Sequence record: PP554575
Length of the DNA stretch: 64,000 bases
Strand: one strand, 5' to 3'
From: Escherichia phage PMBT16
The translations under genes and the position numbers were made by a program. Each line of letters begins with the position of its first letter. The first letter of the stretch is position 1. The notes beneath the pieces are model-generated. The model was given only the letters and a program-made list of their open reading frames with translations, was not told the origin of the DNA and did not search any database. This document shows positions 12,616 through 13,489 of this stretch, one piece after another.

Positions 12616-13041
12616 ATGATCTATGAAATGCCAAAACTGATTCGTGACGATGCCCAAAACGCTCACACCATTATTATGGGCAAACGCATGGATATTATTT
12701 GTCATAAAGATTTCTGGGAAGGAAGTTACTTCACAGAGTATTTTGGTAAACTGGACAATGGTCTGCTGATCCAGTTCTACACCGATGCGGAAAACAACAT
12801 TCACTGGGAGTTCGAAACTGAAGATATCCATAAACTTTTCACCTTCCTCGGTATTAAGGTTGAGGCCAAGTTTGAAGAAGGTGAGTGCGACGATTGTGGA
12901 TTCTATGAGGTAACAGATTTCTACCTTCCAAGTGGTAAAAATCTCTACTACGAAAGCCACTTCGGCAACTCAAATATGCCACAGGGTTGGGATGAGTTTT
13001 TGGAAATTGCAGAAGAGGAGCTGGAATACCGTGATTATTGA
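12616..13041 (+). CDS. hypothetical protein (141 aa)
   Basis: ORF track; GGAGA RBS. Confidence 0.6.
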   Translation: MIYEMPKLIRDDAQNAHTIIMGKRMDIICHKDFWEGSYFTEYFGKLDNGLLIQFYTDAENNIHWEFETEDIHKLFTFLGIKVEAKFEEGECDDCGFYEVTDFYLPSGKNLYYESHFGNSNMPQGWDEFLEIAEEELEYRDY

Positions 13042-13489
13042 TACTGTAAAGGGAGATCTAATCTCCATTTTCAAGAAAGGGTCAGGCCACATGATCCACG
13101 GTTGTAACTGCTTTCACACAATGGGTGCAGGTATAGCGAAAGATATTGCCCGTGAGTTCCCTCAAGCACTGGCAGCCGACAAAGAGACTGCTTATGGTAA
13201 TCTAGACAAGCTGGGTATGTTTTCTTGTTGGGAGCATTTTGCCAAGACCAGGGTCGTATATGGAATCAACCTGTATACCCAGTTCTACCCAGGGCCCAAT
13301 GCTGAATACTTCTCAATCATGAAAGGTTTTGAGCGAGTCAACGAGGTATTCAAAGGTATGTCATTGCCGTTCTACATTCCTAAAATCGGATGCGGTATTG
13401 GAGGTCTAAAGTGGGAACATGTAGAAGATGTAATTAATCTTGCAACCACAGATATTGATGTGGTTGTAGTAGAGTACAAAAAGTGTTGA
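13031..13489 (+). CDS. macro domain (ADP-ribose binding/processing) protein
   Basis: KGDL...HGCNCFHTMGAGIAKDI and IPKIGCGIGGL motifs typical of macro domains; GTG start with GAGGAG RBS overlapping upstream stop. Confidence 0.6.
   Translation: MIIDTVKGDLISIFKKGSGHMIHGCNCFHTMGAGIAKDIAREFPQALAADKETAYGNLDKLGMFSCWEHFAKTRVVYGINLYTQFYPGPNAEYFSIMKGFERVNEVFKGMSLPFYIPKIGCGIGGLKWEHVEDVINLATTDIDVVVVEYKKC

Follow-up and report, generated by a model that had tools for sequence, protein, structure and literature searches.

Macrodomains are often promiscuous, and two of those already described, the bacterial SCO6735 and the phage protein T4 Tk.4, are the main points of comparison for the gene considered here. 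[quoted passage not shown] For T4, the DarTG2 passages of a 2025 preprint give genetic evidence that tk.4 is the single significant hit of a transposon library on DarTG2 and that a clean tk.4 knockout sensitises the phage to this system; the gene was named adfM (10.1101/2025.11.20.689424). The tk.4 hit closes a gap left by the finding that T4 without adfA and adfN is still DarTG2-resistant (PMC11825919). A second phage protein of this name, the chimallivirus AdfM (PhiKZ gp104), is described in the relevant passages of Morgan et al. (Cell Rep 2026, PMC13309987) as a late-expressed, stand-alone macrodomain that removes thymidine-linked ADP-ribose from DNA against DarTG2 and undergoes import into the phage nucleus; the same passages treat the role of its residue N23 and of the corresponding N22 of DarG.

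The window that we analysed, a 64,000-nt stretch of Escherichia phage PMBT16 (sequence record PP554575), belongs to a Vequintavirus (an rV5-like E. coli myovirus), and a 5-kb region of it is 98.9% identical to vb_EcoM_bov10K2 and 98.6% identical to MaxBurger (= Bas54). The product of 13031-13489 is a macro-domain protein by fold, family membership and active-site residue pattern, and it matches bas54_0092 of Bas54 at 151 of 152 residues. Related records name it “Macro domain protein”, “Poa1p-like family protein” or “phosphatase”, and the rV5 RefSeq entry reads “tk.4: phosphatase”; databases and published work already record the identity of the gene and the role of its family, and the anti-DarT idea is not new. 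The sole modestly new point is the presence of glutamine in place of the catalytic lysine, common to this protein, T4 Tk.4, and SCO6735, which is absent from the AdfM-paper passages cited here.

Gene boundaries and neighbourhood

The features to which we refer are the following, numbered from the first letter of the window:

1868-3946, + strand: primase/helicase gene, on the same strand as the macro gene
4005-6782, + strand: DNA polymerase gene, ending 6.25 kb 5' of the macro gene
12616-13041, + strand: upstream ORF of 141 aa, in phrog_8157 (no assigned function); its 3' end, stop included, shares 11 nt with the start of the macro gene
13015-13020, + strand: Shine-Dalgarno-like GAGGAG, 10 nt 5' of the macro GTG, within the end of the upstream ORF
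13031-13489, + strand: macro-domain CDS of 459 nt and 152 aa, GTG start, TGA stop at 13487-13489
13097-13147, + strand: loop-1 motif H23-GCNCFHTMGAGIAKDI-39, from the family alignment
13268-13282, + strand: N80-L-Y-T-Q84 motif, with Q84 at 13280-13282
13385-13408, + strand: loop-2 motif I119-GCGIGGL-126, the phosphate-binding glycine-rich loop, from the family alignment
13741-13935: small ORF two genes 3' of the macro gene, with a Pfam Phage_zn_bind_2 match of 80.7 bits

The preliminary description of this DNA had placed a macro-domain ORF at 13031-13489, and the sequence bears out both ends as well as the two motifs quoted for its product, HGCNCFHTMGAGIAKDI (residues 23-39) and IGCGIGGL (residues 119-126). 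A mechanical ORF list instead opens the frame at GTG 12932, giving 185 aa. We place the start at 13031 because of the Shine-Dalgarno-like sequence, the identical calling of the 459-nt CDS in the annotation of three related phages (rV5_ev168, MaxBurger, and slur16), and an alignment with T4 Tk.4 that begins at residue 1 (MIIDTVKGD/MIVKYIKGD). On the CDS length annotated in these relatives and the conservation of residues 1-20 with Tk.4 we rejected both the longer start at GTG 12932 and a shorter one at the ATG of M21.

The gene had also been assigned to a replication-gene block. It does share the strand of the primase/helicase and polymerase genes, but it sits in the accessory block of small genes downstream of them, within a run of ∼60 small genes lacking assigned function. 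All ORFs between 11837 and 14986 fall into PHROGs without known function, and their sole Pfam match is the phage zinc-binding domain at 13741-13935; the neighbours of the macro gene thus gave no context clue in the PHROG and Pfam scan, which detected no adjoining darT. The 11-nt overlap of stop and start suggests that the 12616 ORF and the macro gene are probably translationally coupled. Nothing supports this ORF as a functional partner, and we set that idea aside: it has no Pfam match, a PHROG without assigned function and just four database homologues; its AlphaFold2 model (pLDDT 82, from four sequences) found no Foldseek match in the PDB better than E 0.07, and its product is unrelated to T4 Vs and to the product of the gene preceding the Krischvirus macro gene.

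Sigma-70-like promoter matches between 10.5 and 16.5 kb number 24, against 11.8 expected by shuffling, and this doubling is weakly consistent with early transcription of the macro region by host RNA polymerase. A perfect sigma-70 consensus, TTGACA-16 nt-TATAAT, lies at 13940-13967, 3' of ORF 13741-13935 and 5' of ORF 13999-14190.

Three observations concern other parts of the window or its database matches. ORF 9961-11187 (408 aa, no assigned function) lies directly 5' of an endonuclease VII-like gene, and its Bas54 counterpart, bas54_0087, is placed in the essential class by the HIDEN-SEQ data cited here, with 8 of 57 TA sites hit. A stretch of ∼2 kb without annotated genes (∼27,300-29,430) separates the divergent arms and is bounded by the counterparts of bas54_0134 and bas54_0135; according to the Bas54 data of the HIDEN-SEQ preprint, it tolerates no transposon insertions (10.1101/2025.11.20.689424). 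The stretch holds no tRNA and no Rfam family, and its repeats are weak; tRNA and Rfam scans across the whole window likewise returned nothing. Finally, 16 of the 128 megablast matches to 11000-16000 bear “Campylobacter phage” names, 15 of them with C. jejuni as host, and two such records encode the ORF upstream of the macro gene at 95% protein identity. These labels may reflect mislabelling or contamination of deposits.

Macro fold and active-site glutamine

The macro-domain call of the preliminary description is upheld, at a level well above chance, by profile, structure and conserved ADP-ribose-binding residues. In the HMM search that it had proposed as a check, the protein scored 26 bits against Pfam PF01661 (gathering score 22, E 9.7e-6); it also matches PHROG 335, that of the T4 Tk.4/AdfM family (E 6.1e-60), and a precomputed PF01661 match is present in most of its homologues. 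Searches of the PDB with the single sequence retrieved SCO6735 (5e3b), the Mtb DarG macrodomain (5m3i), Poa1p, and TARG1. An AlphaFold2 model built from a 75-sequence alignment (A1) has pLDDT 94.3 and pTM 0.89 and shows the three-layer alpha/beta/alpha macro fold. Foldseek gives it probability 1.0 against many solved macrodomains, TARG1, Poa1p, and DarG among them; the DarG matches are the Taq and Mtb proteins, and BT1257 and SCO6735 are also among the best structural matches. By E-value Poa1p is the top match (1.6e-9), at TM-score 0.69-0.71 and rmsd 4.0-4.4 Å, whereas TARG1 superposes at TMq 0.78 and rmsd 2.5 Å.

Invariant among the 75 homologues of A1 are G24, N26, C27, M31, G34, A36, D50, N80, Y82, T83, Q84, P117, G120, and G122. 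N26 aligns with DarG N22 and PhiKZ AdfM N23; the glycine-rich M31-G32-A33-G34-I35-A36 corresponds by family alignment to the diphosphate/distal-ribose loop, and the pocket loops align with those of TARG1, DarG, and SCO6735.

Three independent alignments (phmmer against Mtb DarG, the family profile against SCO6735 and TARG1, and MAFFT) put Q84 in the column of DarG Lys80, TARG1 Lys84, and SCO6735 Gln85, while G124 occupies the column of the catalytic Asp125 of TARG1. Glutamine stands at the catalytic column in all 75 sequences of A1 and in all 252 full-length sequences among 256 proteins retrieved, where the surrounding motif is NxY[TS]Q in 249 and NAYIQ in 3, the other 4 being fragments. T4 Tk.4 has NLYTQ with the matching glutamine, and PhiKZ gp104 has Lys78 (MAFFT). 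On this column evidence we place this single-domain protein with the Gln-type macrodomains of the ALC1/TARG1-like class and not with those of DarG type.

The described proteins resemble it in different respects. TARG1/OARD1 (4J5S) and Poa1p (6LFR), the top structural matches, share the PxIGCG loop, and Poa1p the HxCNC motif as well; the Lys84/Asp125 dyad of TARG1 is replaced by Gln84 and Gly124, and Poa1p is a small-molecule phosphatase whose superposition is the poorer. SCO6735 (5E3B) and BT1257 (2FG1) are best or near-best PDB sequence matches (5e3b at 4e-6 with the single sequence and 2e-14 with the profile, 2fg1 at 6e-15) that likewise have glutamine for the catalytic lysine, lack an Asp125 equivalent, stand alone and are unpaired with DarT. 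They differ in identity (∼21-27%, with SCO6735 at ∼27%), in an insertion of five to six residues soon after the glutamine (within the “GMKTGSKGAPV” stretch) that the phage family does not have, in the motif N-M-I-G-Q as opposed to N-x-Y-T-Q, and in being encoded by DNA-damage-induced genes on bacterial chromosomes. DarG (5M31, 5M3E, 5M3I, and 7OMU) shares fold and class, and its profiles match residues 4-147/149 over just their macro part, with 46 bits over positions 2-144 of NCBIfam NF048014 and 46.6 bits for the PADLOC DarG profile. We nonetheless rejected a DarG antitoxin: the NF048014 equivalog cut-off is 250 bits, the matched positions are only 2-144 of 338, Gln84 replaces Lys80, and the protein, with 152 aa rather than ∼340, lacks the C-terminal DarT-binding domain and has no darT beside its gene.

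Family breadth, fusions and dispensability

T4 Tk.4 aligns end to end with the macro protein (residues 1-150, 40% identity, E 1e-44). With T4 left out, the family profile gives Tk.4 168 bits and assigns nearly equal scores of 52-58 bits to BT1257 (57.7), SCO6735 (56.9), TARG1 (54.3), and Mtb DarG (52.0). The biochemically characterised PhiKZ gp104 receives 39 bits and is only 21% identical to the macro protein (E 5e-4), with a Lys-type site at K78 like that of DarG; within the macro fold it forms a lineage of its own. Like the window protein, Tk.4 is a stand-alone protein of ∼150 aa; the two have the motifs HGCNCFHTMG.G, NLYTQF.PGPN, and P.IG.GIG in common, and, according to the preprint sections cited above, Tk.4 is non-essential on K-12, as is bas54_0092. 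The loci differ, the T4 gene lying between vs and tk and the window gene following an unrelated 141-aa ORF, 3' of the DNA polymerase gene; the anti-DarTG2 phenotype, as those sections present it, is known for T4 alone.

A tblastn search located family members in 2735 phage records, the T-even tk.4 locus among them; clusters at 50% identity retrieved by an exhaustive profile search number 1324 with E<=1e-30 and 8777 with E<=1e-10. The macro protein of Krischvirus (RB49-like phages) is 68% identical to that of the window, compared with 40% for T4, and in Krischvirus UPWr_E1 the gene occupies the regB-tk locus (L008 3001-3456). Such identities suggest that the macro gene has been exchanged between Straboviridae and Vequintavirinae.

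NADAR is the fold of the guanine-ADP-ribose DNA erasers AdfN and DarG1. Among ten long family members examined, four are NADAR fusions, two of them with DUF4326 as well, and all keep NAYTQ; these Gln-type proteins are P0169, P0178, P0227, and P0217 (locus L011 2427-3437). On one short metagenomic contig, a macro-NADAR gene lies two genes 3' of a gene for a NUDIX protein. Each such chain joins a putative thymidine-ADP-ribose eraser to a putative guanine-ADP-ribose eraser. A chromosomal family member in Pelagimonas stands alone amid housekeeping genes, and darT was not found nearby. Together, the fusions and the stand-alone Pelagimonas member favour nucleic-acid ADP-ribose as substrate. An origin elsewhere than in the DarTG operon would likewise agree with them, although the profile scores do not split SCO6735-like from DarG-like ancestry, and the glutamine common to the phage family and SCO6735 could be due to shared descent or to convergence.

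The macro gene behaves as an accessory gene, as two kinds of disruption indicate. In the Bas54 data of the preprint (10.1101/2025.11.20.689424), whose library hosts were K-12, CFE303, and CFE311 only, bas54_0092 was hit at every one of its 31 TA sites on K-12 and is therefore non-essential; nor was it depleted in the comparison of K-12 with one of the two clinical isolates (log2FC +0.42, q=1). The other disruption is natural and comes from contig 708 (135,506 bp) of Logan ERR11560567, a near-identical Vequintavirus assembly; a clean deletion of 508 bp runs through its macro gene, flanked by the 10-nt direct repeat CCAGTTCTAC, found in the window at 12771-12780 and 13279-13288. In the resulting fusion protein (P0016, locus L012 2501-2866), approximately 54 codons from the start of ORF 12616 are followed by residues 85-152 of the macro protein. 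The allele lacks N26 and loop 1 and so looks like a natural loss of function. Our literature search found no DarTG2 tests on Vequintavirinae.

Proposed function and alternatives

We think it likely that the gene encodes an accessory, probably early, free-standing macro ADP-ribosyl glycohydrolase of the T4 Tk.4 (AdfM) family, a DNA de-ADP-ribosylase that would counter DarT2. The preliminary description had suggested a role against DarT-like defences, and analogy with the 40%-identical Tk.4, whose knockout is DarTG2-sensitive in the preprint passages cited, supports it; for the window phage we infer the substrate, the target defence system and the timing of expression. In the mechanism that we propose, host DarT2 would ADP-ribosylate thymidines of single-stranded phage DNA, so that replication stalls. 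The macro protein, probably made early, would take the ADP-ribose into its glycine-rich pocket (N26, loop 31-36, and loop 117-125) and hydrolyse the base-ribose bond, yielding unmodified DNA on which replication could continue. Catalysis would probably be of the SCO6735 type, with Gln84 positioning the distal ribose and water doing the chemistry, unlike the lysine-based catalysis of DarG and TARG1. SCO6735, only ∼27% identical, is the Gln-type enzyme whose biochemistry stands behind this scheme. As the protein has no DarG-like C-terminal DarT-binding domain, it would act mainly by erasing the mark, not by blocking the toxin.

Other substrates deserve consideration. The protein might erase mono-ADP-ribosylation from protein or RNA, either to reverse the marks of other host ARTs used in defence or as toxins, for example mRNA-modifying CmdT-like enzymes or protein ARTs, or to tune a phage-encoded ART. 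The TARG1 class does act on Glu/Asp-linked protein ADP-ribose and on phosphate-linked nucleic-acid ADP-ribose (PMC9411070, and PMC11833690 in its relevant passages), SCO6735 has a protein substrate too (PMC9411070), and T4, which carries Tk.4, also encodes the ARTs Alt, ModA, and ModB. We nevertheless hold this to be unlikely, since SCO6735 is inactive on 2'-OH RNA ADP-ribose and on 5'-phosphate-linked ADP-ribose in the assays cited from PMC11833690, and since the T4 screens, as the preprint passages present them, hit tk.4 with DarTG2 alone among the reported systems. Moreover, no ADP-ribosyltransferase is annotated in the examined stretches of rV5_ev168, MaxBurger, and slur16; on this weak, annotation-level view of partial genomes we rejected regulation of a phage-encoded ART by the macro protein.

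Historic labels (“phosphatase”, “A1pp motif”, “Poa1p-like”, and “O-acetyl-ADP-ribose deacetylase”) point instead to a hydrolase of small-molecule ADP-ribose derivatives, a Poa1p-like ADP-ribose-1''-phosphate phosphatase or an O-acetyl-ADP-ribose deacetylase that tidies NAD-derived metabolites in the infected cell, as do the leading Foldseek E-value of Poa1p and an HxCNC...G.GG motif like the Poa1p segment. This we find quite improbable: TARG1 superposes better than Poa1p does, the invariant glutamine matches that of the DNA-active SCO6735, the NADAR fusions indicate nucleic-acid ADP-ribose, the phenotype of the T4 homologue is specific to DarTG2 in the preprint passages cited, and the “phosphatase” names on phage members were transferred by similarity. 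It is highly improbable that the protein serves as a sponge or hydrolase for immune signals derived from ADP-ribose, among them the cyclic ADPR isomers of Thoeris. Macro domains of ThsA effectors bind ADPR-derived signals, as reported in the cited part of PMC11204291, and one NADAR-fused family member weakly matches ThsA_Macro (26.5 bits, cut-off 25; PADLOC ThsA 20.6 bits); the window protein, however, has no ThsA_Macro match in the Pfam scan, its invariant, catalytic-type N26 and Q84 fit an enzyme acting on a glycosidic bond, and genetics lends the idea no support.

DNA de-ADP-ribosylation against DarT2 thus remains the reading that we prefer, and it provides a probable counter-defence role for one gene of an accessory region that is mostly unannotated in the Vequintavirinae, which are broad-host-range E. 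coli phages of therapy interest. If it is true, Vequintavirinae with the macro gene would resist DarTG2 hosts and would lose that resistance on deletion of the gene. We also put forward, tentatively and with slightly less than even confidence, that macrodomains of the T4/rV5 type are Gln-type enzymes with lysine-independent, water-activated chemistry that came from free-standing bacterial “ADP-ribose repair” macrodomains, not from DarG, so that T4 Tk.4 and PhiKZ gp104 would be independent recruitments with different chemistry. Under independent recruitment, the macro-NADAR fusions would be two-headed erasers, removing ADP-ribose linked to thymidine as well as to guanine in DNA. There would then be two mechanistically different kinds of phage anti-DarT2 macrodomain, glutamine-based and lysine-based, a picture that bears on the design of inhibitors and mutants and on tracing where phages obtained their macro genes.
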